Assembly (NCBI GenBank): GCA_002256025.1
Contig: NKIB01000273.1
Location: forward strand, 1 to 34,005
Reading direction: 5' to 3'
DNA from: Asterionella formosa
Lineage: Eukaryota
Length of the DNA: 34,005 bases
Below are positions 150 to 33,285 of this stretch, in pieces (within the stretch, counting starts at the first letter, position 1; every line of letters starts with the position of its first letter). Below the pieces are notes generated by a model, which was not told the DNA's origin, searched no databases, and saw only the letters and a list, made by a program, of their open reading frames with translations. A program made the translations under genes and the position numbers.

Positions 150-626
150 GATATTTACTGTCGTTGCAGTGCTGTGTTGGCGAGAGAAAAATAAGAATAA
201 CCGGTAGCTAAAATAATGGACCTTGTTTGGCACATATTTGGCAAACAATACTACCTGGTACCATCCTCATCAGTATACATAATTCCACCAGTGTTGATTT
301 TGAGTAATATTAATCACGTAAAAAATTGGGTTGCCTACAACTGGCTAGTAGTACATTTACCTAGTACCGGTAATAACCTACATAACATGAAAACTGGGAA
401 GAGGGAGCTTTTTTACCGGTAAGTGTGAGTTCTTCATGTGATGTGTACAACCGTAAAACTTTGATCTCAGATGGATGACATTAGACACCACAAATATCCT
501 TACTATTTCATTAAGTAAAATGCGTGTTGTGAATGTATTAGCCTCAAGAGCAGGATCTTAGTTGAACTTTCAAATGAATTATTTGAAACATCAACTAATT
601 CAGTCTTGCGTTCAAAATTCATTGTG

Positions 627-709
627 AAAACTTCACATGAAACAGTTAAAACTTCACATGAAACCGTTAAACTTCACATGATACCGTTAAAACTTCACAT
701 GAAACCGTT
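627..709. repeat. Tandem repeat, 4 x 20-21 bp (AAAACTTCACATGAAACCGTT)
   Basis: Units start at 627, 648, 669 and 689, differ from the consensus by 0-2 bases and have no spacers. Confidence 0.95.
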
Positions 710-825
710 AAAAGTAACCTTTTTACGTGAAGAGTGGCATTAACGACTATAGCTCAACGTTGGCAGGGTTTGAAGAAGAGGAAAGTACATCGGTAATCTT
801 AATATAGCCCCAGAAGTTAACTTTC

Positions 826-948
826 GGCGAGAAACTGCAGAAAGGAACTTCGGTTTTTTTACTAGGCCAAATAAACGAGTTGGCCCAGTAAAATCCACTT
901 TTTTCAGCGTAGTTAAAAAACTGAAGTTCCTTTCTGCAGTTTCTCGCC
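826..948. repeat. 123-bp MITE-like inverted repeat
   Basis: 39-bp arms at 826-864 (GGCGAGAAACTGCAGAAAGGAACTTC...) and 910-948 are reverse complements with 2 mismatches, around a 45-bp spacer. No clear target-site duplication. Confidence 0.8.
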
Positions 949-1292
949 AGATCCTATATCCTGACGATATACAGCGTTGACCTATACCACTAATTTGTCA
1001 GAAGACTGTATCTAAGCATATGGAAAGGGTGTATATTGGTGGTAGCTCCGTTTAGCGATATACATTTACGTTTTTCTCGTAAGATGTGTAGGTTTGACTA
1101 CTCTGACTCATTAATATTTTTAAACCCTACCTCGAGCTAGGGGTTCAAATGCAGGAACCTTAATATTGCTTTACTGTAATAACCGTGGTTATTTGTCGTC
1201 TCAAGTCTGACTTGGTGGCGTCAGACTTTGGACTCAAGTCCAGACTTGGTATAAATAACCTGTACATATATTCAGAGGTGTGCGTTACCAGA

Positions 1293-1322
1293 TACCTGGT
1301 ACCTGGTACCTGGTACCAGGTA
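1293..1322. repeat. Chain of four overlapping TACC[A/T]GGTA units
   Basis: TACCTGGTACCTGGTACCTGGTACCAGGTA read directly. A similar 3-unit chain lies at 28617-28639. Confidence 0.95.
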
Positions 1323-1530
1323 TCATGTATGATATGTTTGTACACATGGTAGAAAAGTGTAATTAAAATATACCAGGGTACCTGCTTTATTTAATACCGG
1401 TGTGAAAAATAATAAATATTATTTATGACGTCGTTCTGCAGATTTCGAAATCGTCAGGTATGGCATACGAACGGATTTTGTGTATGTAGAATCTCAGCTG
1501 TACGTAAATGTCAAAGTGTCCGGTAAAACT

Positions 1531-1618
1531 GAAATACTACCTGGTACCAGGACTCAAGGGTCACAATCACTACGGAAATACTACCTGGTACCAGGACTCA
1601 AGGGTCACAATCACTACG
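1531..1618. repeat. Perfect 44-bp direct tandem duplication upstream of the ARM gene
   Basis: GAAATACTACCTGGTACCAGGACTCAAGGGTCACAATCACTACG occurs at 1531-1574 and 1575-1618. Confidence 0.95.
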
Positions 1619-1697
1619 AGGCGAGGTGTAAAAGGCGTTTCAAACAAAAGGTCACTTTTCCCTCAAACAACCATGCCAATCAACGAACAAATCAAAC

Positions 1698-3215
1698 ATG
1701 ATGCCGACGACTGTTTCATACTCCCCTACCCACTATCATCCTGAAATTAGGACTGCGAGTGGCGTACAAGCAGAGCTCGTGAAGCATGGAGTATATTACT
1801 GTCCTACTCACAAAGACATTATGCTCCACACATCGACATGGAACATTTTTCGATGTAAGAGAACGTGGACGATAGTCCGAGAAAGCTGTCATATATGTGA
1901 TGATGATCGTATGAATAGAAAAAATCCTATTGATGCAACCATTAAAAAGATGCAAGATCAGCGTAATGAGGCTAGCATTCAAGAAGATGGTCTCATCGAG
2001 CTTCAGAACTTGGCTGCTATTAACAACCAGGATGAGATTGCTACCAAAGGAGGTATCGATGAGATTCTGACTGCTATGAGGAACCATTCATCCAATGTTA
2101 CTCTGCAGCAACATGGTCTTGGAGCACTTGGGAGTTTGACTGTGAATAATAACGAAAACAAAAAGAAAATGGCTGAAGCAAACGGTGCCACTGAGATTCT
2201 GGCTGCTATGAAAGATCATTCATCCAATGTTACTGTGCAAAAATATGGTTGTAGAGAACTTTTGAACTTGGCCGTGAATGACAAAAGCAGGGCTGCGATT
2301 GCTGGAGCAAAAGGTATCATTGAGATTCTTACTGCTATGAAAAGTTTTCCATCCGATGAGGATGTGCAACACTATGGTTGTGCAGCACTTGGGAACTTGG
2401 CCGTGAATGACTGCAACAAGGTGACGATTGCTGCAGAAGAAGGTATTACTACAATTCTGTCTGCTATGACGATGTCCAATGTTAATGTTCAACACTATGG
2501 TTGTTTAGCACTTGGGAACTTGGCTTCGAATAACAACAACCAGGTGACAATTGCTGAAGCAGGAGGAATCACTAGAATTCTGTCTGCTATGAAAAATCAT
2601 TCATCCAATGCTAATGTGCAAGAATATGGATTTGCAGCACTGGCGAACCTGGCTGTGAATGACAACAACAAGAAGGCGATTGTTGATGCAGGAGGTATCC
2701 ATACGATTGTGTCTTCTATGCAGGAGCATCGATCCAATGCTACTGTGCAGATCCGTGGTTGTAGAGAACTTTTGAACTTGGCTGTGAATGACGGGACCAG
2801 GGATGCGATTGCTGGAGCAAAAGGTATCATTGAGATTCTTACTGCTATGAAGAATCATTGGGGCAATGTTCATGTGCAACACTATGGTTGTGCAGCACTT
2901 TGGACTTTGGCTTCAAATGACAACAACCAGGTGGCGATTGCTGACGCAGGAGGTATCAATACGATTTTGTCTGCGATGAAGAATCATTCTTTTAATGCTA
3001 CTGTTCAAGAATATGGTTGTGCAGCATTTGGGAATTTGGCTGTGAATGACGACAACAAGAAGGCGATTGTTGACGCAGGAGGTATCCATACGATTGTGTC
3101 TTCTATGCAGGAGCATCAATCCAATGCTACTGTGAAAAAATATGGTTTGACAGCACTGTTGAAATTGCCTGTCAGTGACAATGAAAGAGGGAAAGGTTTT
3201 TGGGAGCTGATGTGA
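1698..3215 (+). CDS. Armadillo-repeat protein (about 10 x 43-aa repeats) with an N-terminal CxxH...W...CxxC module
   Basis: 505-aa ORF with ATG start. Repeat consensus is GGIxxILsAMknHssNanVQxyGcxAlxNLAvNdnNkxxIaxA. The N-terminus contains YCPTHKDIMLH...WTIVRESCHIC. Confidence 0.9.
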   Translation: MMPTTVSYSPTHYHPEIRTASGVQAELVKHGVYYCPTHKDIMLHTSTWNIFRCKRTWTIVRESCHICDDDRMNRKNPIDATIKKMQDQRNEASIQEDGLIELQNLAAINNQDEIATKGGIDEILTAMRNHSSNVTLQQHGLGALGSLTVNNNENKKKMAEANGATEILAAMKDHSSNVTVQKYGCRELLNLAVNDKSRAAIAGAKGIIEILTAMKSFPSDEDVQHYGCAALGNLAVNDCNKVTIAAEEGITTILSAMTMSNVNVQHYGCLALGNLASNNNNQVTIAEAGGITRILSAMKNHSSNANVQEYGFAALANLAVNDNNKKAIVDAGGIHTIVSSMQEHRSNATVQIRGCRELLNLAVNDGTRDAIAGAKGIIEILTAMKNHWGNVHVQHYGCAALWTLASNDNNQVAIADAGGINTILSAMKNHSFNATVQEYGCAAFGNLAVNDDNKKAIVDAGGIHTIVSSMQEHQSNATVKKYGLTALLKLPVSDNERGKGFWELM

Positions 3216-3242
3216 AGATTCATTCATCCAATGCATATATAT

Positions 3243-3330
3243 CACTATGGTTGTACAGCACATTTGAACTTGGATGCTGACAACAAGGTAGTGATTGACA
3301 TTGCTTGTGGAATAGTCACAACTATTTTTT
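3243..3330 (+). pseudogene. Degenerate ARM repeat downstream of the stop codon (copy at 10221-10308)
   Basis: Translates as HYGCTAHLNLDADNKVVIDIACGIVTTIF. A similar remnant (..DNKVAITKGAGGIVT) follows the LRR-ARM gene at about 8853-8925 and 15831-15903 on the minus strand. Confidence 0.7.
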
Positions 3331-4207
3331 AATTCATATTTAAACTTGGCAAGAAGTTCCCATTCCTTTTGTTGGGAATATCATTTACTACAGTCATGCT
3401 CCTGCAACTTTTAGTCCTTCAAACGTTGTAGGCAATTTAAAATAATTATAAAATGAAGATTCATTTAGCTTTTGTTTCCTGAGCTAAATTAATATTTTCA
3501 AATGGATGCCAATCAAATGATGCAAAATGGCTGAGGGGTTGATCACTTTTGTTTCAAAATTTTCGACGTCTTCACCTTAGCAAATCCTTCTCTTGGCAGC
3601 TTTCTAATATTTTGATTGTGAGCGATGACCATTCCAAACCAGCTGTACTACAGGTGTACAAACATACTACTGTAAGTCAACCAAATGTCAGGAGCTGTGA
3701 TGCACATCCAGTGCTCATTTTCTTGTCTTGTGCTCGCGAATTCGTGTTGATCAGGTCATAATGATCTCATTGCTGGCCTAACATTTCATCGTGGTTCCTC
3801 AAATTCATTTCTTTCTTTTGCCTTGTTGCACTAACACACTCTACTAGTGTATGAAGGCTTCCAATTCCAAATAAACACAATACATCAGCCGCCAATAATT
3901 ACTTATATAAACAACCATGTATACAAAAAGACTGTCTAGTATGCCCTGCAAATACATATATGGCGGAAATAGAGGGCGGAATATATCTAAATTTATTTAT
4001 TTATTTGCTATACCAATCCCCACTACCAAAACAAACCAGAAACATCGGATGCTATACAATCATGTCAATATGAAAAATATTTGACCAATGCTTATATTTC
4101 AAAGACCAATATAATATCACCTAGCTACATTCACCAATACATACGTCCAGAGTACAGTATTCAACAATCACTACCGGTTTTTTTATGATAAACACTATAT
4201 TGTTCCT

Positions 4208-4445
4208 AACAACATCAACAAATAAAGTAAAAAAAGATCCAAGTTGGACTGAACTTGATCTCAGTTATAATTCAAGTGGTGATGATGGTGCCAAGGCCAT
4301 TGAAGAGGCTCTCAAGGTCAAAACTGTCTTGACTAGTAGATTTGCTTGATCTCTGGAATAATTTAATAGGTTTAAATGGCGCCAATGCATTGCGGAGGCC
4401 CTTGAGGTCAATACCGTCTTGACCACACTCAATCTAATTTATAAC
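4208..4445 (+). pseudogene. Frameshifted RI-type LRR cassette (about 3 repeats)
   Basis: Reads KKDPSWTELDLSYNSSGDDGAKAIEEALKVKTVLT / LDLWNNLIGLNGANA / IAEALEVNTVLTTLNL across two frameshifts and matches the LRR units of 16288-18834. Confidence 0.85.
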
Positions 4446-6560
4446 TCTTAATAATTCAAGTAGCTTTTATAGCTCATTTAAAGTAACTCTAAATTGCATT
4501 TGTGCCCTGAAGGCCACTGGTGAGAATTATGACAATCTTAAACGCCCGTGGTCTCCTGCCATCAGGCTATTCCCACCAAGGGGCCAGTCGGACTTGAGTT
4601 ACACCCAGTATCCTCTAATATTGTCTGATATTGTTGCCAATAGAGACATGTGATATCAACTGTCGCTACCCACATTCGTTTCTGGCATACAGTATGTCTG
4701 CGTAAGCAGCGTACCCGGAGTGAGAGAACCAACAGAGAAGCAAGTACCACAAGGAATGGAACAATCTTGGTTGTGACGGGGATACCGATCGCAGATTTTT
4801 CAATCAGGAAAAACGTGTTTCTATGGCGTATTTCATGTCTGTTCAAGAGACAATGGAAGAGTAAGGAAAAACTCTTACTGGTTAGATACTTTGATCATGA
4901 TGACAAAGGCGAGGAGAAGATACTAGATGACAGTGTCTATGTGGTCCTAGATTCTGGCTTGTTTAACAAAACATCATTTGAAACTTCAAGGAAATTTCGG
5001 AATCATATGCGATGATTTTTATGGAAAACTCACTTTCCTTGAGATTTTAGACTACATCAGAAAGACAACAATATGCCACCAAATGCACCCATGCACTACA
5101 TCCAGACTGGCAACCATGTCCTGTTTCAATATTTCCAACTCCTTACTAGATAAATGGGACAAATCACTTTTCTCCTCGACCTGTTCTCTCTGAGGAAGTT
5201 GATGGGATTAGGCTGTCCTATATATTGCCTCTGATGTTGCCAAGAAAGAGATTTCTTAAAACAATGGGATAGTACAATGTTATTAAGCAAAGTTTCAATT
5301 GTTATTTCGAGCCCCCTGCTATTCAAGGCTCATTTAATGCTACTATTTCTTGAATGAAATGAAGACAAGCTACTTCCTGATTAGTGATGTTGCGGCTCTA
5401 ATTCTGCAGCATACAAACGTTCTCGCCAATAGCCAGTCAATGAGAATGGAAGACCCATGATTAAGGTCATGAGCAACAAACTGCGCCGCCATCTGGTCCA
5501 TCTTCACTTTGATCCACATTTCATCTTGAAGAATAGATTCGACATACAGATCGATGTTCGCAATGGGCGAATTATGATCAAAAGGTATTATTTTCTTGAT
5601 TTCGGTTGGAATTGGAATCGGGTATGGCCTTCAATGCATCGTTCTCCAATTCTGTTGTATAAATTGACCAAAGCTTTTGATTTCGAGTAACAAACAAACA
5701 ATCAAACTTCGCCAGCATAATTCCCAATCAATATCGACACCCTATCATTCGTTATAAGACTGAGATCATCGTCGTCCCCGCAAGAAGGTAGCTTGTAAGG
5801 GATTCAACGAAGAAAGCACATGGCTTGTAAGAAATTCGATTACTGATACTATGCAAATGGAGAGATAATGACGAATTGGATCAAAGCATGTACCGGTAGA
5901 GCATTCAAATCGGAATGGAAACAAGGAACGCACTGTTGTTGCACAGAATTCATTCTGATAGAATCGTCGGGTACAAGGTTTACATACACGTAAGGTGATC
6001 TGTGTAAAGTCATAACCTTCGCTAAAACAATATTTGATCAAAGAGCAACAGCTATTGGTAAATCAAACAAACAACGTTTCAATATATCAAAACATTTGAT
6101 TACTAGCAGATTAGTTTTGATAACTAATATATATGACCACACCGACACGGTCATTGATATATCAAAATTATCATCAACATAACACAACATTTGATCAATA
6201 TATCAACAATTTTGGCTAACCGATTAAATTTGGTAACTAATATTTACGAGTTCTTATATACGCATAACCTAACATGTGTATGCTACTAACCTAACGTACA
6301 AATTTGATTGATCATACAGACACGGCCGTTGACATATCAAAACTATCATCAACATATCAAAATATTTGAATAATCAATCAGTTTTTTAACTTATGCTGAG
6401 TAAAACGTTAGATCTAATTGAAAATCTATTCACAGACGAAAGAGAATTTGCAAGGCTATTACATGATCCCACTTATTCCCAACACCATATTCGTTGTTTT
6501 TGGGAAAGTAATAGTCAATTCATTGAATCAAATTCGAATTTCATTTTTTTTATTCCGGCT

Positions 6561-6697
6561 AGCAGCACAAGTAAGAAACCTGTCGGGCTGATCGGTATCA
6601 ACAGTCCTGTCATTTTTATATTCTGAGAGATGCATGAAAGGCTGGGGAAGTTGAATTTGCCCTCTATCTTAATTTCATTGACTTGTATTGAGAGTAA
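6561..6697 (-). pseudogene. Dispersed ~135-bp copy of the 3' coding end of the 645-aa gene (duplicate at 13539-13675)
   Basis: AGCAGCACAAGTAAGAAACCTGTCGGGCTGATCGGTATCAA...CATTGACTTGTATTGAGAGTAA aligns to 23253-23387 and to 22897-23031. Confidence 0.9.
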
Positions 6698-7248
6698 TAT
6701 GTTTGAGGGAAGCCATCACAATCCTTTTTTCTTGGTTTAGAAATAGCCTGTAAATGCATCTGCTGCTCGATTTTTTCAAGGAATCCATTCATCACTGTTT
6801 GTTTCTCCTTGTTTGTTGAAAGAAACTTTATTGATAATGCTGTGCAGGAGTTCACCGCATCAAGGAATGATTTAGTGATGGCATAAACAGATGGTTAAGA
6901 AACTCAATAGACATGACTAATTTCTATGAGGTTTCCGCCTGCAAGCCAGCAAAGTCTGATGGCAAGGATCAACTCAGGATACATATGCTGATTTGAGCTG
7001 TATAAGCCGGAACTTGCATTTGATTCAACAACATTAAGTGTGATGGAAGGTCGAAGGAGTTCCAGTAGTTGATTGAAAGCTTCAAAAGACATGCGATATT
7101 CATGAAGAAGCTTTGTGACATGACCATTCCAGTAAATTTGTTGATGCTCCCATTTGGGAATTCGCACTGGCTTCGAGTTTTGTTCATAGGACTCCAAAAA
7201 TGATAATGCAACTGCTGCAATTAACAAAAAGCTCTGTTGTTCCCCCAC
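6691..7248 (-). mobile_element. Truncated, stop-containing PIF/Harbinger-like transposase (N-terminal half)
   Basis: Motifs YRMSFEAFNQLLELL, PELILAIRLCWLAGG, FLDAVNSC..LSIKF and KPRKKDCDGFPQTYYS resemble the Harbinger/HARBI1-type N-terminal region. In-frame stops occur near 6904, and the sequence ends before most of the catalytic core. Confidence 0.75.
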
Positions 7249-8955
7249 TTCAATATCAAGATTGCCAACAACATCTCAACTGTAAGGTTCTTCCGGTCGA
7301 TTTGTCATTGTTGTTACAGTAATGATAATTTTCAGAAAAGTTGAATAATTGAAGCGCACATTGCAAATATTTTTGCCAAGTCTGATGCACATGTTTGCAG
7401 AGACATGAAGAAAACGGCTAACAACTGTTTTGCCATTACAGAGATATATTTGTGAAATGTATCTCTGTAAAGATTCATTTTTTTCTGAAGATACAACAAA
7501 ATTAATTTGTATCTCTGTTAAGATTGGTCCTCAGGGATGTATGTATTATTTACCTATCGTGCTATGTATAAATACATACCGGTAAGCAATTTAACAGATA
7601 GTGGTGGACTTTCTTGCCTACATCATATGGTACCTGGCACCGTCATATGTTGCCATGTGCTCACAACCATGTTTCAGTTAGTGGTTTGGTTTGGAGGTAG
7701 ACTAGGGGTGGTGATCTATAGTATGAGGGTTTACCATATTTTTGACGATTATGATTGTATTACCAGATTACCAGTATACCCGGTACCAGGTGTGCTACTA
7801 CCGTACGCATCTGGCATGGAAATCCACCATGTCCTACTATCCACACTGTAAATCTAGTGAAGCTCACATTGAATTAGCTTCTAGTACTGCTGCATTGAAT
7901 GATATATTATTATATACGTTAATATATACTATTTATAATATTATCATGGAAGATTGTATACTATAAGAAGCTATTAATGTCGTCTGACCTTATAGGGCAT
8001 TCTCGCGGTCAGGTCATAAATCTTTATTGGGATACTAGGAGATATAAACCGACCCATTGAATGAAAAAGAAAAAATATATAACCTGGTAACTTTACCCCA
8101 ATAACGTCAATAACCCATAAGCAAGTACCCAATAACGTCAATATTTCCTTGAGAATCAAAATTTTGACATTATTGGCCAAGTAGACATTTTCTATCCCGG
8201 GTTTACCAAAAGAAATGCCTACTTTTAAGTGAATTCATATGAATTTTACATGATTGGGGATGAATTATGACTAAACCTTTTTGGAATCCCAATATGGTCA
8301 TTTTTGACATTGGTTTTATTTACTCCAAAACGGTCAAGCGTACCCAAATAAGGTAAATATTGGTCCCCTTTGTAGTCGGCGGGGTACCAGCAACTTATGT
8401 ACAATACAGATTGAGCATACCATTGCCATTGGAGTCTTGGCCATCATTATTGGAGGTGTTGTTGTGGCTTCTCAAATAAACTTAAAATGGTGGACAGCAA
8501 GGCACTTTGTTGTTGGATCAAAGCTCACTTGAGGAACAAGTTGTTGTCCCAGAAAAGTTCGATGTTCCATACCATAAGATGCTACTGCTAGTTTGGACTT
8601 CGACAATTGGAGATGAAAGGATGACATGATGGGTGATCATACTGCTACTGCTACTGCTACTGCTACCACTAATAGTGATGATTTTGGTTTTGATGATGAA
8701 TGATATGCATCGTTTAAAATCAAATATGAAATCATTACTGTGACAAATGTTATTGCCAAATGAATGAAATGCAAATGCAAAGGCCATATTTCTTGCAAAG
8801 ACAAACCATGGATGATTTTGCATAGAAGCATCCTTGCAAATATTCCAAGAAACATTGTGACTATTCCACCAGCACCTTTGGTAATTGCAACCTTGTTGTC
8901 AGTATAACAACCCAAGTTCCTAAGTGTGATCGACTATTTTCTTGAACACCAGTAT

Positions 8956-11185: not shown

Positions 11186-11423
11186 AACAACATCAACAAA
11201 TAAAGTAAAAAAAGATCCAAGTTGGACTGAACTTGATCTCAGTTATAATTCAAGTGGTGATGATGGTGCCAAGGCCATTGAAGAGGCTCTCAAGGTCAAA
11301 ACTGTCTTGACTAGTAGATTTGCTTGATCTCTGGAATAATTTAATAGGTTTAAATGGCGCCAATGCATTGCGGAGGCCCTTGAGGTCAATACCGTCTTGA
11401 CCACACTCAATCTAATTTATAAC
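11186..11423 (+). pseudogene. Duplicate of the frameshifted LRR cassette
   Basis: Same sequence as 4208-4445 at +6978. Confidence 0.85.
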
Positions 11424-18834: not shown

Positions 18835-20947
18835 AGTCAGTTTGAATGTAATTGCAGGTGTTTATGGTGTTGACGAACAGAGAAACTTGTTGACTTTATT
18901 GAGTTGGTTCTTGTCTGAGGGAAAAATCTTGTTTTGTGTTTCAAACGCTTTTCTTTTCTTGAACGCCTGAGAATTGCTGCCAAAATAGTTTCTCTACCAA
19001 ATCTACCTACAAGCAAGCTTCAAATGATCGATCATGATGATGCATGCCGAAAATTTTGTCCATCATAGTGTGTAAGTAAGATTATACGAACGACGATTAG
19101 AACGTGAGTAACAACTACCCTGGTACTCCGCACCGGGTAACAACTTGTACCGTTCGTACCAGCAAGTTACTACGGGTAGGGTCATTTTACCGAAACTGAA
19201 TCGCGGCGCAGGACAGGCGCTTAAAAAGAATCAATAGAGAACATCATGTAGTTTTTGAATCGAGAGTATTACGGGAAGACGTGAATGATTACCGGTATTT
19301 CGTTTTCAATCGGAAACGTTGAAACGGGAGGCTAATGATGGCTGAAAAACGAAAGTGACGATGACTGGGGCAATAGGCGGCAATACATGAGGTGTCCTTT
19401 CGGCAATTGCCTCCCTTTCGTGAGAAGAAGAGGTACCTGCCATGGTGGAAAGGGGGTATGAGATAATTGAAAAGCTCCCATACGGAGCCATTACCAACAT
19501 GGTGAAGGCTCAGAAGGTATACCGGTACTTGCCTTGGCTTACCAAAAAAAAGTCGACTACTGGTTACGAAAGGCAGGTGCTAGTGCTGTCCCCAACATGG
19601 GTATACTATCAGGAGATTCTCAGGCAGATATGCGCTTATTTTACTATTAAAGTAGTAGAACATCTACTTTGACAAGAGAAGAGGATGACAACATGACAGG
19701 AGTAGATGATAATATCAATGCTATTAATAGTATTGAATTACTTTCTACAACTATGACTACTGCTGCAGTTACAGTAGGGTTGTTTTGCATTTAATAATCA
19801 AGAGTAAAAAATTGCGATACGCACACAAAATTGACGCAATATTTGTCCTACATATATATATACCGTAACATCATATACCGTAAACGACGTGTTCTCTCCC
19901 GGAAAACCTTCATGTTCTTGTCAGCCCGTCGACTGTGAAGTACGACGACAGCAATGAAAAAGGGAAAATCATTTTATGAGACTACCGATACTATTTTTAC
20001 AAGTTAAATACCGGTAGTATGATTCCTATATGGAAATTAGTTTTTTTATAGCTATTGTGGACTCTACTACAATGGACTCTGAGTACCGGTATGGTGACTT
20101 GGCGGTGGAAACAACGAAATGACGATGACCATCACATGATGATCCAACTATTCTAAACAGATAAATAATGAATGATAAATCAATTGTTGTTTTGGGCCTG
20201 ATCTCTTGTAGGCAATGGAGCATTGTAGAACGGCGCATATGTACGAATAAAACGGGTTTCAATGCGACCTCGAGGCATCGAGAGATATCGTTCCATGTCG
20301 TCGAGCCCAATTGTGGGTTTCCGATTTTACTGTTTCTGCTATATCTAAACGAATGCGGTATCTACAATGAAAATCGTTTACAATACGCTAGCGACTATTC
20401 GATTCTATGTATTTGATTAGTATGCAATAGCAATTGAGGGAAAGATGTTATGATCGCTGTCGCCAAATTGTCAGCGATCTGTGGTAATTGTTTCTGACAT
20501 GATGTCGATGAGCGATGACTTGTACCGGTACCTATATAGCACTGTTTCAAGGGTCCTCAGTTTCCAGCGGTATATTAATAGACGAAGGCAATATACCGGT
20601 ATGCTGACTTGCAGATGAGTGAAACTTATTGGGATTCATACTTACCGGTACGCTATATGCTCGGAATCTCCAGAAACAAGGTAGCGTACCAGCAATGCAA
20701 ATAACGCGTTTGTGTTGGGATTTTCACCCCCGTTGGCATCGCATTTTAGGGTTACAGAAACCGAATCACTGTTTGGTTTGCGTTTTTGACCACAGTTTTT
20801 AATAGAACCAGCCTTAAGTACCCAACGCTTATTTTAACCCTAGTTTGGAGAAAATATCGCTAGGGTTGTAAAAACGGCATGAAACAGGGAGTTTCCTACT
20901 ATGAATTCCCATGCATCTGATTTACTTTTTATTTAAGCACCAAACAT

Positions 20948-21735
20948 AATGTTTTCAACATGGATCAGACTTTCATTCTTTTCTACCCTGGTAAGGACAA
21001 GGTCCTTGTACCAAAAGGGACAAAACGAGTAGGGTCCTTGGTTCCAGTTGAAAATGACAAAAAGGGAGTCACACTGGCAGTCACAGCTAGTAGTCTTCTT
21101 TCTTTACAACTTCTCCCACCATTCATCATTGATACTGGATCATTTGGAGCAGATCTGATGACCTCTTGGAGCAACTACACAAAGTCAACAGTTATTTTCA
21201 ACAAATCACATTTATGACTCAATATGCGATTATTATATATCTTGAATGGCTATTGAAAATGTTTCAATGTCAAAGGTCTTTGCTTATTGGAGATCAATCC
21301 AAAATTCATTTTGGAACAATTATTACAGATTGTCTAGAGACAAACCACTCATCACCTATACCAGGTAGTAGTAAAGTGTTCCTTTTGTTCATCTAAGAAG
21401 GCTGGACATCAATTCATCAGGTTTGTGATATTGCTTTAAATAAACCTCTCAAGGAGGCTGCAATCAAAAAGCTGTTTTATGATTTCAGGCAGAGAGCCAT
21501 TAGCAAAAAGCCATACTAGCTGATGAAACTGCCAAGGAGCTGCTTGGGTGTGCCCTCACAGTTCCAAGGGAAGATCTGGTACGAATGATTGAGACTGCCT
21601 TTGATGAAATAGACCTAGGGAATATGCCCAGGAGATGGATTGCAGCTGCACTCGCAACATGTCAGCAGGAACCTTAGTCAGCCGAATCGGACAGTTTTAA
21701 AAAATATCTTGCTTCCCTCGATGAGAATGCAATAA
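20948..21735 (+). mobile_element. Decayed pogo/Tigger-like (DDE_1, Tc1-mariner superfamily) transposase catalytic domain
   Basis: Reads VFNMDQT...KKGVTLAVTA...LPPFII / FMTQ...YLEWL...LLIGDQSKIH...FI*EGWTSIHQVCDIALNKPLK, with three Asp motifs, frameshifts and stops. No HTH region was seen upstream. Confidence 0.85.
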
Positions 21736-22610: not shown

Positions 22611-22810
22611 ATAATACTTTTGATTTGCAGGCAATGCCATGTGGGCGAGTGTTCCCACTTTTTCATCAGAAAAGTCATGACATCCAATACACAAAAGAAA
22701 TTGAAATCCAAATAATCCTTTCAGTCCTATTTTCTTCCACTCTAGAGAAAGCATGTGGGAGATTCATTGTTTCAAGTAATTTTGGAAGACAAGACATTTT
22801 CAATTTGCTT

Positions 22811-23081: not shown

Positions 23082-23183
23082 TGTTGGAACCTAATGAATT
23101 CTAGTTTTTCAATAGATGAAATATAATTGTGGTGAACCTAATGAATCCTAGTTGTTCATTGATGGAATCCATTAAAGAGCACG

Positions 23184-25121
23184 TCAATGGAGATCCATTT
23201 CTCCTATTTTTTGACCAATGGAATATAAAGCTCTCTTATGTAGTGGGATAAGAGCAGCACAATTAGGGAACCCGTCGGACTGATTGGTATCAATAGTCCT
23301 GTCATCTTCATATTCTGAGAGGCGCATGGAAGGCTGGGAGTTGAATCTGCCATCTATCTTAATCTCATTGACTTGTATTGAGAGTAAAGAAGCATTGGGG
23401 GTCGATAAAGCCGTAATAGTTGAGCTTGACCCTTCTGCTTGTAGTCGCTTTGTACTTGAAAGATTTCCGATTGAAATGGAAATGTTCTCGGTCTCATTTA
23501 GCTGAGTTTGATTCATCAAGGCAGCAGCAGAAATTGTTTCGGGGGAAGGCCGAAATGTCGATGAGATGCAACTCATTGCCACTTTAGCACTGGGTTTAGT
23601 ATCGACAATTGCATTATCAACAGTTTCAATAGTTGTTTTTATTTCTTCTTCGAGGAGATTGACAGCAGATTCCCTTCGTTTCTGTGTTTGAACTTGAACT
23701 TTGTAGTCCGCTCGTTGAATAATAGTGTCGTAGTCCATTTGGATCTGATCGACTATAGTCAGTTCTGTTCTCGAATCTTGGAGAACATGATTTCGAATTG
23801 GTACATGTGGTGGATCTTCTTCAGTCCCATCCACAAGCCAATGCGACGAACTACGCAAAGAGTCAGAGATGCGGTGACGTATATCTTGTTGATTTTTCAT
23901 CAACTCTTCCCTAATTTCCGAAATGCTTAGTCGCTGATGGTTGCCGTAGCTTTTCTTTGCTCGTTCCTTCAATTGATGTTTGCATGATATTTCTTTCATT
24001 GGTCGTTCCAATTGCAATTGGAATTGCGATGCCAACCCCTCATGGTTTTTTCTAAAAATGTCTTTTGTAGGTCCTCTAGTAGCACTGGAGGATCTCTGAT
24101 GTTTCTGTCGTTCCAATTTTCTAGTTTGGCGAGGTTCCTCCTTGCTATTCGATCTATTCTTTAGTGACTTTCTCCGAGTTCGTTTCTCTTTTTGTTTTTC
24201 CAAATGACGCTCTACAAAATTGTCGTCATTAGAAAAGATTGCTTGGTGCTGCTGTGGTGCCTCCGAAATGTGTTTCTGATTCTTGGTAGTTGTACACGTG
24301 TCCGTATTTCTTGGTGCTCGATACTCTTGATCAAACGTGATCCACACTTTCTCAGGTGTTGACAGGGGAAGTTGATGATGTCGTGGTGCTGGTGCGCGGC
24401 CCTCCCTAATGAGTACTTCACTAGGAGGTCGTGATTGACTCCTTTGTTGATGTTTGTGTCTTATTTTCTCCTTTTTCCTGTGCAATGACTTTTGGCGAGT
24501 CTCATTGATATCATATGCCTCATTTACAGTAGTAGTTGTTGTTGCTGTAGGAGCAACAGCTTTCTCCCTTCGAGCATCTTCCCATGTCAGTTCTCGTCGA
24601 GTAGTACCCTTTTGTTCACCATGACCATGACCATGACCATGACGACTACGGCGTACTTTTGTTCCTTCTTTTCTTTTTTCTGCAGCATCAGCAGGAGTTG
24701 AATCATGAATGATGCCTCCTCTACGTTTCTGCTGTACCACCAAAAGCCGTCGAGCCAAGACGGATGGTTCACTTTCCTGTCTCAATAGCCGGAATCGCTC
24801 ATCCGTCACTGCAAAGAGTCTTCTCGTGCTACTTTGTGATTGATTTGTAAAGAAGGATTCCTCGCTTCGTTGTCTCTGCAACTGTAACCGTAATGGAGAC
24901 ACGACGTCCTTGTGGTCCAAAGGATCCGCTTCAGTGTCAGTGTAAGTTTCACTGTCTAGTGCATCATCCAGAATCCTTCGAAGTAGGAGGTCGTCTTCAT
25001 CGAAACAAATGATTTTCACTGCAGCAACTGCAGCATCAGCATCAGCATCAGTAGCGGATTGAAATGCCAAAAGCCAAGGCTGCTGTTCTGACGTCGACAA
25101 GAGATTCAAATTCGGATTCAT
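23184..25121 (-). CDS. Hypothetical hydrophilic, low-complexity protein (645 aa)
   Basis: Long uninterrupted ATG-started ORF rich in R/K/Q/E/S/T with HGHGHGHG and poly-T tracts. I recognise no domain. Confidence 0.75.
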   Translation of the reverse strand: MNPNLNLLSTSEQQPWLLAFQSATDADADAAVAAVKIICFDEDDLLLRRILDDALDSETYTDTEADPLDHKDVVSPLRLQLQRQRSEESFFTNQSQSSTRRLFAVTDERFRLLRQESEPSVLARRLLVVQQKRRGGIIHDSTPADAAEKRKEGTKVRRSRHGHGHGHGEQKGTTRRELTWEDARREKAVAPTATTTTTVNEAYDINETRQKSLHRKKEKIRHKHQQRSQSRPPSEVLIREGRAPAPRHHQLPLSTPEKVWITFDQEYRAPRNTDTCTTTKNQKHISEAPQQHQAIFSNDDNFVERHLEKQKEKRTRRKSLKNRSNSKEEPRQTRKLERQKHQRSSSATRGPTKDIFRKNHEGLASQFQLQLERPMKEISCKHQLKERAKKSYGNHQRLSISEIREELMKNQQDIRHRISDSLRSSSHWLVDGTEEDPPHVPIRNHVLQDSRTELTIVDQIQMDYDTIIQRADYKVQVQTQKRRESAVNLLEEEIKTTIETVDNAIVDTKPSAKVAMSCISSTFRPSPETISAAALMNQTQLNETENISISIGNLSSTKRLQAEGSSSTITALSTPNASLLSIQVNEIKIDGRFNSQPSMRLSEYEDDRTIDTNQSDGFPNCAALIPLHKRALYSIGQKIGEMDLH

Positions 25122-28100
25122 TCTTCGCTCGTTATTTCGAATGAGCGATTACGATACGTCTCTCCTCGTTCCACGATCAATAGCTAGACTATTAGACTTC
25201 TACTCCTTAATGGCTGGCTGTACCCTGATGGCATAGGAGTCTACCGGTACAAAGGCAAATGAGTGGAATGCACCCAAAATGATATTTTATCATTAAGAAA
25301 TTGTTACTGGGGAACAAAAACCAATCCGATGCATACTTTATGTGTTTCTAGTTGAAATGTACGTTCGGTGGTATGTATTTCATCTGTAAGTACATAGTGT
25401 GGCATACATATGATATTTATAATTCAATTACCGGTAGAAGGGCCTATGTAATAGTGCTTGTTCGTGGAACCGCTCGTCAACTACGGTACGGTATCATACA
25501 GTACCCTGGACTATTTTTAAAAAGGGTGGGCAATGGCAACACCAAGAAGGAAATTTTGAGCAACGACTATATTTATACTGTGCATGATGCTACTAATGTG
25601 ATAAATTTGTCGTGCCCTGCTTTTTTATCCATTCATCAATTTTCCTCGTCCACACAGAAATGTTTCACAAAGAAGGACGGCGAAACATCCATACTGCGCA
25701 CCGCTACATATAAATGGACTGGTTCTTGTCTACAGGATGTTTGATAATTTACGGCTATATACCCTGGTACCAGGTACCCGTAGGGCAGGTACTCACTTCC
25801 GGCTATTCTGTTCAATTGTACCTGTAAATCATTTCCACCCAGCGATACATAATTCGTCAACTACCGGTACACCTCTGTCACTACGACACCGAACACTACT
25901 GTTCGGATAAACTACATTTCTCCCTTGAGATTATGATGAAAAAACTTTACTTATTACCACCAGTGTCTCGACTACATATGTAATTTGAAGTCCTATCTAG
26001 GTTATTATGTCTTTGTCAAACATCCATACTTTATATAGGACTAGAAAGAGGACCAGTAATGACATATCTGTCGCAGTGCAAATTGTGTACAAACGCTATT
26101 TACACAATATATGTGTAGCTATTTATACTCATATACATTTCTTTATTAAAAAGATTGTATTTACGTTGTAAATAGGATGTTATGTTGCTAACAAGAAAGA
26201 GCTCGACATTTGTGAAGGTGCATTTTCGATGTCGCACTTGAGACCCTCGGAACCCTACATAGCGGTGAATGAACAAGCAACGAAGTACTGGGTGGAGAAA
26301 TGTGGGAATCAAACAAACACACCAACAACACACACACACACCCCAGAAGGAGGTGTACTTACTACTTCTTATAAAAGGTGTGCCATTCCCCAATTACTGT
26401 ACTACATGAATATATCTATGTTTGGGGAGGGTTCGAGTGGATACTATACCTTCTGAGGTGAGGCATTGGTACCATTGACAGGGGATGGTAGCTACTGTTC
26501 AGCTTACACATTCATTTCCTGTCGCAGAGTCAGAGTCATGTAGACTCAAGCAAGTCTACAATCTTAATCTCTACTATATCCCATGTCAATGTCAAAGTAG
26601 AACACAAAAGGAAATTGACTTTTTTCTGGAGAGATCAATTAGAGTTTTCCTCAGGACCAGCTACTTAAAGATTATTATCACATCCTATTTGATGATAGAA
26701 TATCATTTCATTTGATTTTTAATTAGTAGGGATCAGACGTGAAGAAATTCTTTGGTCAGATGGTAGTTAGTGATCATCAGACCAGAAGAAGGAAAAACGT
26801 CAGGATTATCCAATAAATCAAAAAATCACAAGATTGAAAAACTCCAGGACAACACGTTAAAAATGCTGTTTTGAAAGTTCCTGTAACATAAGGTTGTAAT
26901 TCCGATAAACTCAATATAAATACAAAATTTTATTTGATCAATAGTTTTAAAAATCTTTTTTAAATGTAAATAAATGTATTAATTGGTCATTTCAATGCCT
27001 AGATACAACATTTTCTTTTTATAAGAGCCAGTACATAAGATCAACAACTAGTAAGCTTACTTATGTGAAATGGTCACTTCACGTAATATGTTGCTTAGAT
27101 GTAGTGAATACATGTAAACCATAAACTGAGAATGTCGAAAAAATCTCTTATGGTTGTTTCTTTCCTGATTCCAAACACGATTTGGTGCATACGTAGGCTC
27201 TGAATTGATGTGGCTTGTTGTCAATACTACATTTAGTGCTAGAAAATAGTAGAAACACGACTGAATGGGACAGCTCTCTTCCAAATATACAACTTCCCAC
27301 CTCCCCCCCTCCTGTTCCACAGGAAACCTTCGTCCTACACTTTCCAAGAACATCGCCCTATTACTACTTCTTGAGCATGTTGCTACCTCAAATCGACGAC
27401 TACCAGCTGATTTTGCTGAGTTATTCTTCATGCCTGCTGTCATTCCATCACCCTCATCAAGTCATCACCTCGCTCGATTCCAGTCCAGCCACAACGTTTC
27501 TCTTCCACATTGCATCATCCACTGTGCTTATTCTTGCAAGTTCAAGAAACACCACAGAACATTATGAGTGTGAATAACAATCATCACACATAACAACAAT
27601 GATTGTGCTGCCGCCAAGAAAGATGACATGAACTTACCAATCTTTGCCTGGATGATCATCATAGGGGACAATGAATGGGAGTAGATTCAACAATCACTAT
27701 CAACCTAAGAACAAAACTCTCTGAAACGAAGAAGAGTAATGCTTCAATGCACTAGTACTATGAATCTAGTAGTATTCCAATAAAGTAGCACATCTAGCTA
27801 CCTCTATTTTACTAGCTAGCAGTTGAAGTTATAATAACTCTTTCAATTTAAGGCAGCTGTAATTTTCCATCATCTGTTGTTGCAACCAACATGGTGGAGG
27901 TGATGGATGGCCAGGAGCCATTTCATCTCATGAGAGGGGTCTCAAAATTTGGGTTCTTACTAATTAATTCAAAACTAAATTTACTATAGGAAAAGATGAG
28001 GATGAGCTAAAATAATATTTTCTTCTTTTAAGTATCATTGTTTACTATATGTTTCAAGTAGATGACATGAGAGACAATGTAGAGAGCAATGTTCGAGTTA

Positions 28101-28776
28101 ATACTCTACATGTGTTGTGTTTCATCAATGTGAAGGGAATAAATGCAATTTTTCTATTTATTAGCATACACATCGGTGCATGGAGTTCATAACGAACAAG
28201 TCTGCGTTTTATTAGTCTGTACATAAAAATGATAAATGTATATACGGTATATGTATGATAGAATAATCGTCATCTTACGCCGGTACATGGGATACGGTAT
28301 ACCACAAGGAGTTCAAACAAATTCAACAAGGCAGGCAAAGGGTCGAACACACCGATTATTATTATATATATATAAATACAATGAGGATGATGGAGCGAAC
28401 AAAAAAAAAGAAGTGGGTTACTCTGATTACTATGTAGCGGTTTCGGTACACCATTAGCAGTATAAATAGATAGTAGCAAGCAGGCACGGATCCGTATTAA
28501 TAAATATCACACACATAAATGTACACGTATGTGTTTTGCGTACTGGTATATATTCTGCATGAATATGACGCCGACGCGTGCACACCTATTTTGTTACACA
28601 ATATTATAGTACATGGTACCTGGTACCAGGTACCAGGTACTAACCCTGATACCGGTACCAGTATGTACAACACATCCTTCCCTGCTTGCCTTCGGATTAC
28701 GGCATGAAAGGAGAGAGTTATTTGCTTGTTGTTTTTTCTTTCAGTGCAATACCGGTAGCTTTCTGCAAACGTAACG

Positions 28777-30142
28777 ATGAGCAAATCACCGCGATTGGCA
28801 GATATTGCCGCTCTCTCTGTGGCTGGAATAGCTGCAGTCCAGTTATTGACCGATGCTAATCCAATTGGCCGCTGTTTGTTGTTGTTGAAGCAGTTGCGAG
28901 GTCATGTGAGTAGCACAGACAGAACTGACTGCCTAGCTGATACTACTGCACAGCATTGGCTTCCATGGAAGCCGAAAACTTTTGAATTACCGGTATTTTC
29001 ACAGCTTCCATGGAAGCCGCACACACTGGCACTCTACCATGATCGTCAAGGAAGCACTAACCCTTTGTCTTGCCCTCTCACTCTGACGCTCACAACTCAA
29101 CTCACAGGAGAAGCGCTTGACGGCCTCCACAGACGTCAACGGAGGCATCGATAGGTACAACGACCTTCACCACGCGGCCTCTGTGGAAGTCCGCAACAAG
29201 GAGTACAAATCCCTCGTGAACGCCTATTACGATCTAGCCACGCTCTTCTATGAATGGGGATGGGGCCAGTCCTTCCATTTCGCCTATCGGTACAAGCACG
29301 AGTCCTTTGCTGAATCCATTCGACGACACGAGTACTACTTGGCCTCCAAGTTGGCCGTGTGGAGCAGCAAGGCGAGGATCTTGGACGTTGGTTGCGGCAT
29401 TGGAGGGCCCATGCGAAACATCGCTCGCTTCACGGGAGTGGACGTGACGGGGCTGACTCTCAACCCCTACCAAGTGGAACGCGGCAATGAACTGTGCCGC
29501 GAGCAGCACCTGGACCACCTGTGCCGATCGGTGCAGGGCGACTTTATGGCCATGCCCTTCTCCGAAAACTCCTTCGACGCGGCCTATGCCATTGAAGCCA
29601 CATGTCACGCACCAGACCGCAGCGGAGTCTACCGGCAGATCTACAACTCCCTCAAGCCCGGAGCCCTCTTCGCCTGCTATGAATGGTGCATGACGGACAA
29701 GTACATTCCTGGAGATCCGGAGCACGAGCGGATCAAAAAGCTGATTGAAGAAGGAGACGGACTTCCTGATATTTGCCATACCAGCGTCTGCTCCAAAGCC
29801 ATGCTAGCTGCAGGGTTTGAATTGTTAGAGGAGCGGGACATGGCGGACGATGATGTAGGTGTTGGAGGCAAGCCCTGGATGCTCCCTTTGTTGCCCAGTT
29901 GGAATCCACTATCGCAACGTTTTCAATTCAATTGGCTCGGCTTTTGTTTGACCAATGGGCTGATTAGAACATTGGAATTCTTATGGTTGGCACCCAAAGG
30001 GACCTTTAAGACTCAACAAATGTTGCAAATGGGAGGCTTTGGATTAGGCGATGGTGGGAAACTGAAGATATTTACACCCATGTACCTGATGGTGGGACGA
30101 GTGCCTTTGGATAAAACAAGCAAGGGTACTGTAGGACAGTAG
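28777..30142 (+). CDS. SMT1: Sterol 24-C-methyltransferase (SMT/ERG6 family); exons 28777-28905 and 29108-30142, about 387 aa
   Basis: Motifs YEWGWGQSFHFA, ILDVGCGIGGP, IEATCHAP, LKPG...YEW and IEEGDGLP. A phase-0 intron GTGAG...CACAG (28906-29107) joins ...QLRGH|EKRLTAS... in frame. Confidence 0.95.
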
Positions 30143-30361
30143 TAGTACTAATATAAGTGGACTGCTGAAGTTTCATAAATTGATTCTCATGGACCCATTT
30201 AAATTCACACGACACATTCAAGCAATTAGTACATAAAGACTCTGTGGCTAGTACAGGTGATTCGTTTGTTATACTGAAAACTAGATGGTGTTTCATGGAA
30301 AGGTACAATTGACTCTCCATGCAACGGTCGAAGAAGGGTTAGGAATAAAATATTAGGCAAG

Positions 30362-32179
30362 TCAATCATTCTTCTTTTCTGTCGTATCCTTGGGTGGCTC
30401 TTCTGGTGGCAGTTCTTCTTGTTCGTTGGACGGCGCTGCAGATGCAGCAGGAGCACTACTACTCATACTACTACTACCGGTAGTAATAGTAGTCTCTGGT
30501 AGTTGTGGAACAAGAGTCCCCTCCAACATGACATCCACTGCTCGATTCAAATTTCCATGAGACATTACCAAAGCTCTCATATTGAGCTGTTCATCATCAA
30601 ATCCCATTTCTCGAAGTGACTGAAGTTGACGACGATACCGATCCGATGGATGCTGTTGTTGTTGTTGTGAAGTAGCATGATGATGTTGTTGTAAATGTGT
30701 TGATTGCATTTGTTGAAGTAAATTTCCAAAGTCCAACATTCCTCCACTTGTCCCTGGTGGTGGCGGTGGTGGTGGTACAATAGTATTATTACTATTGTTC
30801 ATTAATGGCATTGTCATTCCAAAGGGTGACGATGAATTCTGCAATTGCATATTCATGGCTCTCAAAGTCGCTGGATTCATCATGGTCCTAATGAATGCTG
30901 GATCCATCATCATTTGTGCCATTTGTGGATTCTGTTGTAACATTTGTTGCATCATGGGATCTGCTTGCATCATTTGTTGCAATGTAACAGGATCTGACAA
31001 TAATTGTTCCATCATTTGTTGCATCATTGGATTTGATTCCAACATGGATAACGTCTGTTCCAGTTGTTGTGGTGAGGGAGTAGGAGGAGCCATAGTAGTA
31101 TTGTTATTGTTGTTGTTAGTATTGTTGGCCCATGGATTGTTCATCAAGGGAGAAGAAGCAGAAGCAGTCGTAGTATTCATAATTCCCCATCCTTGGGATG
31201 AAGCAGGAGATCTGGTAGATGCAGAAGCGGTTGGTCGATTCGAGGTACTTCCCCATGGGTTTGGCATGGCTGCTCCTGCAGCTCCTGCTTGCTGATTGGC
31301 CGGATTCGTAAACGAGGTAGACGTTGCAGTGTTGTTGTTATTGGTTGCCATGGCATCCATAAGTGGTTCCTGAACATCACGATACATGGAGCTAAGTGCT
31401 GCGAATCCTCCTACCAGTGGGGAGTGTGATACTGTGAGTGAAAGTTATAATGATATATATATATAAAGATGAATATATATATATACACACACGAGTAGCT
31501 ATAGAATGGCTCCAAACTAAAACCTACCTGGCATATTTTCAATTTGACTCATGGCCAATTCTTGATTCCTCATGGCATTCCTCATGGCATTTGGATCTCT
31601 CATCATTTGCAAGGATTGTCTCATGAGATCTGGATCATTCAAGACTTCTCTAAGTTGTGGATTTTGTCTCATTAATTCCCTCATTTGTGGATTACTGTCC
31701 ATCATGTTTCTCAAAACATCTGGAGTCATGACGGCTTGCATCATGGGTGAATTCATTAGTTCCGCTAGTTGTTCTGGGTCAGTTGTAGTTGTAGTAGTTG
31801 GTAGTAGTAGTGACGAAGGTGGCGGTGGTGTCGAGTTGCCGTTCAAGGTGGTATTGGGAGTAGTAGAGGAACTACTAACTGCTGTAGTAGTAGCAGCACT
31901 ACTAACTGCTGTACTACTAACTGCAGCACTACTAACGGAAGCCCTGCTTGCACTCCCCTTGACCAAATGCAGAGTCGAATCATGAGAAATGCCATAAAAG
32001 CTAAGGAGCATTGGATCATTGTCCAAGATGCGTCCCTTATAAATGAGTCGCTGCGTTTCGACGGGAAGATCCGATTCTGCAGCGGCGATGCTTTCTTTCA
32101 AAGACAGAACAGTCGCAGCGTCTCCGTCGACAGTCACATGGAATTTGACTCCTGTAGAGCGACGAATAAAGAGATTCAT
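30362..32179 (-). CDS. DSK2: Ubiquilin/Dsk2-like protein (UBL - STI1 repeats - UBA); exons 32179-31528 and 31410-30362, 566 aa
   Basis: N-terminal QRLIYKGRIL...TLHLV, M/Q/N/P-rich STI1 motifs and C-terminal QLQSLREMGF...GNLNRAVDVML. The intron GTAGG...TAG (31527-31411) restores IENMPG|GFAALSSMYRDVQEP. Confidence 0.95.
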
Positions 32180-32576
32180 CCTTGGTCAAGACCTTGGGCT
32201 TGATGGTTCGTTGTTCTTTGCCCAACAACAACCGAAGCAAATGGTCCTTCTTCTTTCGGTTTCATTCGTCAGATGCCCCAGGAATAGGTAGCTTCAGCGG
32301 CTCGCTGGTACAGTAGGATATGTACGGGGAGAAGTCTCCACCGGTAGTCGTTCATACTTAACATAATTCATATTTGTATATGTATATCTGTATGTAGGAC
32401 GTTCTACATGTACGTACGGTACAATACTATGTACTGTTACCCCGCTTCTCCTTCAAGAAACAAATAAGCATACAATACATACCCAGCACCTGGTACATGC
32501 AGTCGTAGATGATTCCTCGAAGAAGCTCACCGAAGAAAACCAAGAGGAATGGAACAGCAAGCCATCATCCATATAT

Positions 32577-32612
32577 CATACATACATACATACATACATA
32601 CATACATACATA
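32577..32612. repeat. (CATA)9 microsatellite
   Basis: Read directly. A (GA)n tract also lies at 33251-33275. Confidence 0.95.
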
Positions 32613-33285
32613 GCTAATGAGAGTACAGCGAGTACCTGATACCAGGTAAGTACTCCAGTACCAAGTAGCTACCAGGACAGTAAATTACATGGAAACTCTG
32701 GAACCTTGGTGTGGTTGAAACCACATAACACACATACCGGTATACCTGCAGGATGCATGATCGAAATAATGTTTGCTTGTGTAACCCCACCGGCATTTTT
32801 CTGAAGATACAGGTTGTACTGGTACGTATTCATACATACAGCTATACATATATATCATGAACATCAATAGGTGTCGTATGTACGACCTTGCTTTCAACAA
32901 CAACAAGAAGTAACCCTAATAATTGGGTGTGCATTCAGTTGTTTAAAGTTCACGTGCGCACCTCAATTTTAAATGTATGGCACAGAGAGGAGGAGGAGGA
33001 TCTGTTGTTCGGACTATAAATTTTTAAAAATGCTACCCGTACGTACTGGTAGTATGTGTTGTTACCTCAAGAATCTTGTGGTTTTACTCTATGCATAAAT
33101 ATAATCATCAGCACATCCTTTTATTGATAAAACGCTCAGTATTTTATCAAATCTTCAAACTTGTTCATACGACGACGTTCAATCCAACATTCATTGTACC
33201 GGTATCAATCATATATATTTATATATATATATCATAGTGCAGTAACAAAAGAGAGAGATAGAGAGAGAGAGAGAGCGATTGAATA

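Follow-up and report, generated by a model that had tools for sequence, protein, structure and literature searches.

A palindromic word clustered upstream of genes in a diatom contig: a candidate cis-regulatory element weighed against transposon excision footprints

The stretch of DNA considered here (the window) is the whole 34,005 nucleotides of contig NKIB01000273.1 in the Asterionella formosa assembly GCA_002256025.1. Our subject is the exact 8-letter palindrome TACCGGTA, which recurs in the window together with variants that carry a short spacer between the half-sites TACC and GGTA. The sequence belongs to the nuclear genome of a diatom and has introns that are few and short, and near-identical DNA occurs in sequencing runs labelled as algae or as freshwater metagenome. 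Encoded are ARM-repeat and LRR_6/ARM proteins, a sterol 24-C-methyltransferase, a ubiquilin and a 645-residue protein. The named relatives of the sterol methyltransferase are all from diatoms: Dactyliosolen (68%), Eucampia (64%), Coscinodiscus (61%) and Thalassiosira/Cyclotella (55-60%). The 645-residue protein (gene G4, open reading frame 23184-25121, minus strand) is rich in Arg, Lys, Ser and Thr; no Pfam family was found in it, and the protein collection has no exact match to it.

A large part of the window is a tandem duplication, whose 8 mismatches all fall within the part that belongs to the ARM-repeat gene (9285-9319, 9915, 10104). As a result of the duplication, the full LRR/ARM gene (to 18834) is accompanied by a shortened copy of the ARM gene (8956-10098). 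For the counts called non-redundant below, its second copy was dropped, which leaves 27,027 bp. The features on which the argument draws, with distances given to the start codon (ATG) where they apply, are these:

252..421: cluster upstream of the leftward zinc-finger-like gene G0 (ATG 149), with TACCTGGTA at 252 (102 nt from the ATG) and TACCGGTA at 365 and 414
1286..1380: 7-bp array of three TACCTGG units and TACCAGGTA (1293-1322), preceded by the decayed unit TACCAGA (1286), and TACCAGGGTA at 1371
1528..1615: 44-bp tandem duplication, each copy with TACCTGGTACCAGG (1538, 1582); the nearer of these (1582) is 107 nt upstream of the ARM-repeat gene (ATG 1698)
3127-10104 and 10105-17082: tandem duplication of 6,978 bp with 8 mismatches, which doubles three motif sites
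5891..7785: two copies of TACCGGTA (5891, 7577) and one of TACCCGGTA (7777), distant from a gene start in a high-copy region rich in repeats
12869, 14555 and 14755: counterparts of the sites at 5891, 7577 and 7777, produced by the 6,978-bp duplication
19116..20650: densest cluster, with TACCCTGGTA at 19116 and seven TACCGGTA (19290, 19520, 20009, 20084, 20523, 20594, 20643), 282-1,816 nt upstream of the LRR/ARM gene start (18834)
20921..21217, plus strand: decayed fragment of a pogo-type DDE_1 transposase, with TACCCTGGTA at 20984 inside it and TACCAGGTA at 21359, about 140 nt beyond it
25242..25869: cluster upstream of G4 (ATG 25121, minus strand), with TACCGGTA at 25242 (120 nt from the ATG), 25429 and 25862, TACGGTACGGTA at 25482, and the overlapping units TACCCTGGTACCAGGTACCCGTA at 25760-25782
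28617..28657: array TACCTGG-TACCAGG-TACCAGGTA, followed by TACCGGTA at 28650
28750..28757: TACCGGTA, with exactly 19 nt between it and the ATG (28777) of the sterol methyltransferase gene
28777..30142, plus strand: sterol 24-C-methyltransferase gene (exon 1 28777-28905, intron 28906-29108, exon 2 29109-30142), protein P0001, 387 aa
28988..28995: TACCGGTA within intron 1 of the sterol methyltransferase gene (28906-29108)
30475..30482: TACCGGTA in frame in a low-complexity linker of the ubiquilin gene, minus strand, read as Thr-Thr-Gly-Ser in a frame set by hand
32640..33204: TACCAGGTA at 32640 and TACCGGTA at 32735 and 33197, at 461-1,018 nt before the start codon of the minus-strand ubiquilin gene (ATG 32179)

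The window holds 22 exact copies of TACCGGTA, each at the position given in a preliminary description of this DNA, which had likewise placed all 13 copies of TACCWGGTA exactly. In 100 dinucleotide-preserving shuffles of the window the two words have means of 0.11 and 0.10, and the observed counts were reached in none. No other 8-mer of the window exceeds its order-3 Markov expectation by as much as TACCGGTA (22 copies against 1.14), and the remaining top-ranked 8-mers derive from the repetitive LRR gene. The excess over chance claimed in the preliminary description is therefore borne out by both models for the window. Its figure of 20 non-duplicated copies of TACCGGTA also matches the non-redundant count, for which 1.03 are expected; TACCWGGTA has 13 non-redundant copies where 0.41 are expected, and TACCCTGGTA together with its complement has 4 where 0.09 are. 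The shorter relatives that had been pointed out before, TACCGTA (7799/14777, 19861, 19876) and TACGGTA (25482, 25487, 28243, 28293, 32415), are present but are merely mildly enriched (8 against 3.0 for the two together in the non-redundant 27,027 bp). The related palindrome TACATGTA occurs twice in the window, without enrichment. Once the duplicated segment is removed, there are 38 unique sites of the form TACC-N0-2-GGTA. An adapter or assembly artefact is ruled out, given that contigs of independent runs span several of the sites with few listed differences.

The sites are far from evenly placed. Among the 38 unique sites, 20 lie within 500 bp upstream of a start codon, 5 at 501-1,000 bp, 6 at 1,001-2,000 bp and 5 elsewhere, with one in coding sequence and one in an intron. 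With a gene model and distance classes that were chosen after the data were seen, the densities are 6.7, 2.0 and 1.7 sites per kb in the three upstream classes and 0.6 elsewhere. The bias towards the first 500 bp upstream of start codons is thus about 10-fold (20 sites in 3,000 bp against 5 in 8,314 bp of other non-coding DNA). When arrays are collapsed, 19 of 31 non-coding loci fall within 1 kb upstream, a number reached in only 19 of 20,000 random placements on non-coding DNA. Copies stand upstream of all six gene starts, namely those of the zinc-finger-like G0, the ARM gene, the LRR/ARM gene, the unassigned G4, the sterol methyltransferase and the ubiquilin, with the nearest copy between 19 nt (sterol methyltransferase) and 461 nt (ubiquilin) from the ATG. 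The non-coding location that had been noted earlier holds for all but one of the unique sites. The copy at 30475 is indeed the only one in an intact coding sequence, as had been stated, and the gene model adds that the copy at 28988 is intronic. An exact look-up of three window proteins, seeking strain variants of the copy in coding sequence, found none of the three.

The motif has a narrowly defined anatomy. The half-sites TACC and GGTA are separated by 0 bases in 22 cases, by 1 base in 15 and by 2 bases in 4, and no spacer of 3-5 bases occurs in the window. The one-base spacers are W in 13 cases and C in 2, the C pair being one locus that was duplicated, and the two-base spacers are all CT/AG. 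All variants show the form TA-x-TA, and the units of the arrays share a TA. A 5-bp relative of the motif is TACGGTACGGTA, at 25482. The motif is also sharply defined: there are 20 perfect copies and 17 with one mismatch (4.0-5.2 expected with the motif masked), and copies of TACCGGTA with two mismatches are close to expectation (75 against 68.5).

The DNA around the sites is unrelated, as the preliminary description had said. The best flank alignment among non-overlapping sites scores 20, near the level of random positions, which score mostly 18 or less apart from two exceptions (46 and 33); this alignment rules out a longer common repeat around the motif. Many contigs of all four runs end at the array at 28609-28641, so that arrays of this kind must recur across the genome.

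Outside the window we drew on a metagenome scan with the sterol methyltransferase, which gave 78 loci, the best at 73% protein identity; this single scan found no same-species alleles in the metagenome collection. The related algal loci, 334,785 bp in all, hold only 5 copies of TACCGGTA and 7 of TACCWGGTA, and so the abundance of the motif is specific to the lineage. The closest locus (L004), a contig of 1,373 nt, carries two copies of TACCGGTA before the start codon. The nearer of the two leaves exactly 19 nt to the ATG, the same spacing as for the window copy at 28750, in front of orthologs that share 73% protein identity. Between them the 19-nt spacer is identical at 7 of 19 positions and the DNA further upstream at 10 of 37, and neither aligns. 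The locus lacks the intron and is perhaps a transcript for that reason. Among 26 orthologous algal loci it is the only one with ACCGGT upstream (up to 450 nt before the aligned region); the 25 others, all more distant, have no copy, so that conservation across orthologous promoters amounts to one gene pair with the 19-nt match. Two further contigs (L055 and L056) come from a GC-rich relative (63% G+C, 52% protein identity). In these, TACATGTA occurs 5 times against 0.03 expected (5820, 10834, 11668, 12096, 13943) and 4 times against 0.02. The copies lie in short spacers between genes and next to single TACC(N)GGTA sites, as at 81 and 10 nt before open reading frame starts. Near the TACATGTA copies stand single copies of TACCTGGTA, TACCCGGTA and TACCGGTA. 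Pairs of motif copies 5-35 bp apart were also sought in prokaryote genomes and viral contigs (at least 115 and at least 119 stretches); they are scattered among bacteria and phages, and nothing algal is among the matches listed.

The same 8-mer is already known from oomycetes. In Roy et al. 2013 (PMC3597505), M94, which is TACCGGTA, and M93, which is TACATGTA, are described as 'high-confidence' palindromic promoter motifs of P. infestans; M93 has 4,150 occurrences in its promoters, and both are over-represented before effector genes. Seidl et al. 2012 (PMC3520976) describe motif-9 as an inverted repeat upstream of 1,284 genes in three Phytophthora genomes, and PMC10031896 equates streme-5 of Plasmopara halstedii, ATACCGGTAT, with motif-9, GTACCGGTA. 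The window shares with M94/motif-9 the core inverted repeat TACCGGTA and its over-representation upstream of start codons, in another stramenopile, and the oomycetes have the sister TAC..GTA palindrome TACATGTA as well. The two contigs of the GC-rich relative show the M93/M94 pair in metagenome DNA. However, the density is far higher here, with several copies before every gene start of the window as against the 1,284 genes; spacer variants and 7-bp arrays are present; and TACATGTA is not enriched in the window. In oomycetes M94/motif-9 is tied to infection-stage and effector genes. Full-text literature searches did not find the motif reported for diatoms (one match was a paper on Phytophthora, another only a primer), and a paper on oomycete core promoters does not treat the TACCGGTA motif. 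The presence of the 8-mer in a diatom, its higher density, and the spacer variants and arrays were thus not found in the literature searched.

We suggest, with a probability of about 0.5, that TACCGGTA and its spacer variants form a cis-regulatory palindrome, made up of candidate sites for a sequence-specific, dimeric DNA-binding protein. Each subunit would recognise one half of the inverted pair TACC and GGTA, and TACC-W-GGTA and TACC-CT-GGTA would be spacer variants of the same putative binding site. Given that copies accumulate over the few hundred bases before the start codons of unrelated genes, the factor is suggested to be a general one that marks or activates promoters rather than one specific to a pathway. 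The palindrome would then be a general promoter-proximal element of this diatom lineage and the counterpart of oomycete M94/motif-9, and binding may affect transcription of the genes downstream. Candidate factor families would include, for example, proteins of the Grainyhead/CP2 type, which bind AACCGGTT. Other exact 8-bp palindromes that occur in many promoters, often in multiple copies, and that have dedicated, known factors are TGCATGCA of apicomplexans and the DRE TATCGATA of Drosophila; unlike the motif described here, these have neither a variable spacer nor overlapping tandem arrays. The 7-bp arrays have probably grown by slippage from sites that overlap. A functional element is favoured by the bias to gene 5' ends, the copies before every gene start, the shared 19-nt spacing, the restriction of the trait to one lineage, the oomycete precedent, for which conservation is reported, and the lack of a donor element for the main alternative. 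Several observations weigh against it. Every site is bordered by TA and has a spacer of 0, 1 or 2 bases, which is odd for one dimeric factor and natural for end-joining scars, and tandem units overlap by sharing a TA (TACCTGGTACCTGGTACCTGGTACCAGGTA, TACGGTACGGTA). The ratio of perfect to one-mismatch copies fits copies that were born perfect and then underwent about 7% neutral decay, although this sharpness does not exclude a strongly specific binding site. The non-coding sites classed as elsewhere are still about 10 times as frequent as expected by chance, far from gene starts; one copy is intronic (28988) and one is in frame in coding sequence (30475); and positional conservation concerns one gene pair only.

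The alternative that takes up most of these points is that a TA-targeting cut-and-paste transposon of the Tc1/mariner/pogo kind, with ends that begin CC, left the sites as excision footprints, an explanation we rank second and regard as unlikely, if by no means negligible. Insertion would duplicate the TA, and excision would leave 2-3 terminal bases on each flank, with end-joining products TA-CC|GG-TA, TA-CC-W-GG-TA or TA-CCCTGG-TA. Arrays could arise by re-insertion into the TA of a footprint or by slippage, and the 5' bias from a preference for open promoter chromatin. Footprints of Tc1/mariner elements do share with the sites a TA-x-TA form, a palindromic core from the element ends, a central W and a size of 5-7 bp, and TAC(A/T)GTA is the footprint of Sleeping Beauty. 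The TA borders, the spacers of 0, 1 or 2 bases (W in 13 of 15 one-base cases) and the units of 5, 6 and 7 bp with a common TA all fit, as do the unrelated flanks, the sharpness, the in-frame 6-bp copy in a coding linker and the copy in an intron. Net length differences in contigs of three other strains, about 0.4-1% different, are -7 (25031-26341), +6 (28656-32565) and +5 (25031-25752), which are the three unit sizes; these are whole-piece lengths over motif-dense stretches, and array slippage would look alike. The window also contains the decayed transposase fragment at 20921-21217, which has 151 matches in the protein library (E up to 0.001); 6 of 10 long relatives scanned carry DDE_1 (PF03184). 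Its summed contig depth, about 200-300 times the baseline of one run (X1), makes the family apparently high-copy. Moreover, the sister oomycete motif TACATGTA equals the canonical Tc1 excision footprint of C. elegans (Eide and Anderson 1988, as cited in PMC3520976), and the same paper raised this idea and dismissed it owing to the conservation and abundance of the motif. What speaks against footprints here is that TA-flanked inverted repeats with CC termini, sought in the window (at least 19 of 30 matches) and in 335 kb of related loci (at least 15 of 20), did not emerge apart from chance or array-to-array matches, so that the search for such elements that the preliminary description had proposed came out negative. 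With orthologs at 73% protein identity, a neutral scar could not have survived at the same 19-nt distance, and two independent hits are unlikely; the 5' bias needs an extra assumption. Footprints elsewhere are rare and varied, and we know of no genome in which they became a dominant word, a point for which the literature was not searched. The footprint interpretation in the preliminary description, which did not propose a functional cis-element, therefore stands as far as the TA borders, spacers, shared-TA arrays and the DDE_1 remnant go, and lacks an element with matching termini.

The remaining explanations fare worse. It is improbable that the motif acts at the RNA level, as a 5'-leader element with constant spacing to the ATG whose paired copies form a hairpin or a protein-binding site that controls translation. 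The copy at 19 nt before the ATG in both orthologs agrees with this, and the two copies of the closest locus, both contained in what is possibly a transcript, fold into an 8-bp stem; but most copies lie hundreds of bases upstream, some of them between divergent genes, where co-transcription is unlikely, and in the window itself the leader shows just a single copy close to the ATG. Even less probable is an iterated palindrome generated by a methyltransferase, by repair or by gene conversion at CCGG/CCWGG with no role in gene control, on the model of HIP1 (GCGATCGC), the exact 8-bp palindrome of cyanobacteria that is spread evenly through genes and spacers of the bacterial chromosome. Both are 8-bp palindromes far above expectation with a core of the methylase type, and the cores of the diatom sites are classic cytosine-methylase sites. 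However, the diatom motif is eukaryotic, strongly concentrated at the 5' ends of genes and almost missing from coding DNA (1 of 38 sites), the even spread over coding and non-coding DNA is missing, and 29 of the window's 51 CCGG lie outside the full 8-mer, with 22 inside it. The HIP-like alternative of the preliminary description accordingly fits poorly. The least probable explanation is simple-repeat dynamics alone, a (GGTACCW)n minisatellite family and its debris. Arrays of 2-4 units at 1293, 1538, 25760 and 28617 and the contig breaks of four runs at 28609-28641 would suit it, but the 20 unique copies of TACCGGTA are isolated, with unrelated flanks, and slippage cannot seed isolated 8-mers; for dispersed copies the explanation is largely refuted, and it stands only for the growth of arrays.

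The cis-regulatory and footprint explanations are not mutually exclusive, since scars could be the source of the sites and binding a later use, and the origin of so many exact copies of the cis-regulatory palindrome may involve the footprint mechanism. A doubtful extension is that the stramenopile promoter palindromes in general (TACCGGTA and TACCWGGTA here, TACATGTA and TACCGGTA in oomycetes) were born as Tc1/mariner/pogo end-joining scars in open promoter chromatin, some of them later bound by protein. In the diatom the process would be genome-scale, with about 7 scars per kb of promoter, and it would cover both the TA-x-TA form and the conserved copy.

Other repeats and mobile DNA were noted along the way. 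The two regions 20834-20913 and 20921-21400 are adjoining fragments of high-copy elements; the 80-bp piece 20834-20913 continues differently on both sides in other genomic copies (loose ends in four runs), and some relatives of the DDE_1 fragment bear an N-terminal OTU protease domain. The region 14221-14500 (= 7243-7522) is very high-copy, with a summed contig depth of about 540,000 against a baseline of about 1,000 in run X1, and its minus-strand open reading frames have no Pfam match. A Harbinger-type transposase, which we had suspected at 6904-7275 and in neighbouring frames, is withdrawn: none of 8 open reading frames has a Pfam family, and a weak TraQ match is noise. Next to TACCCGGTA, TA-CCAGGTGT / TA-CCAGGTGTGCTAC (7784-7798 = 14762-14776) was considered as an element end, the TA-CCAGGTGTGCTAC at 7784 resembling the mariner terminal sequence, and was dropped as likely chance. 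It has no inverted partner in the window, where the search for one to TA-CCAGGTGT gave 2 matches, both from the duplicated copy. A (TACA)n microsatellite (32579-32612) lies just upstream of the TACCAGGTA at 32640, with TACATACATA present 7 times against 0.07 expected. A 21-bp unit, AAACTTCACATGAAACCGTTA, is repeated in about five tandem copies at 628-730, in the divergent promoter between G0 and the ARM gene. Another palindrome, TGGCGCCA, has 7 copies (4377, 17445-18369); because five of them sit in 84-bp repeats of the LRR gene, we treat it as an effect of coding repeats and not as a second motif.

To our knowledge, few cis-regulatory elements of diatoms have been described. An exact word at nearly every gene start of the window offers a handle for finding the factor that may bind it, for mapping promoters and for building synthetic promoters for diatom engineering. 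The occurrence of the same 8-mer in oomycete promoters suggests either a factor specificity conserved across stramenopiles or a common mutational process. If the sites do prove to be excision footprints, the oomycete motifs that have been treated as transcription factor sites would need to be re-examined, and this would be the first case known to us in which transposon excision has written a dominant word into a eukaryotic genome.

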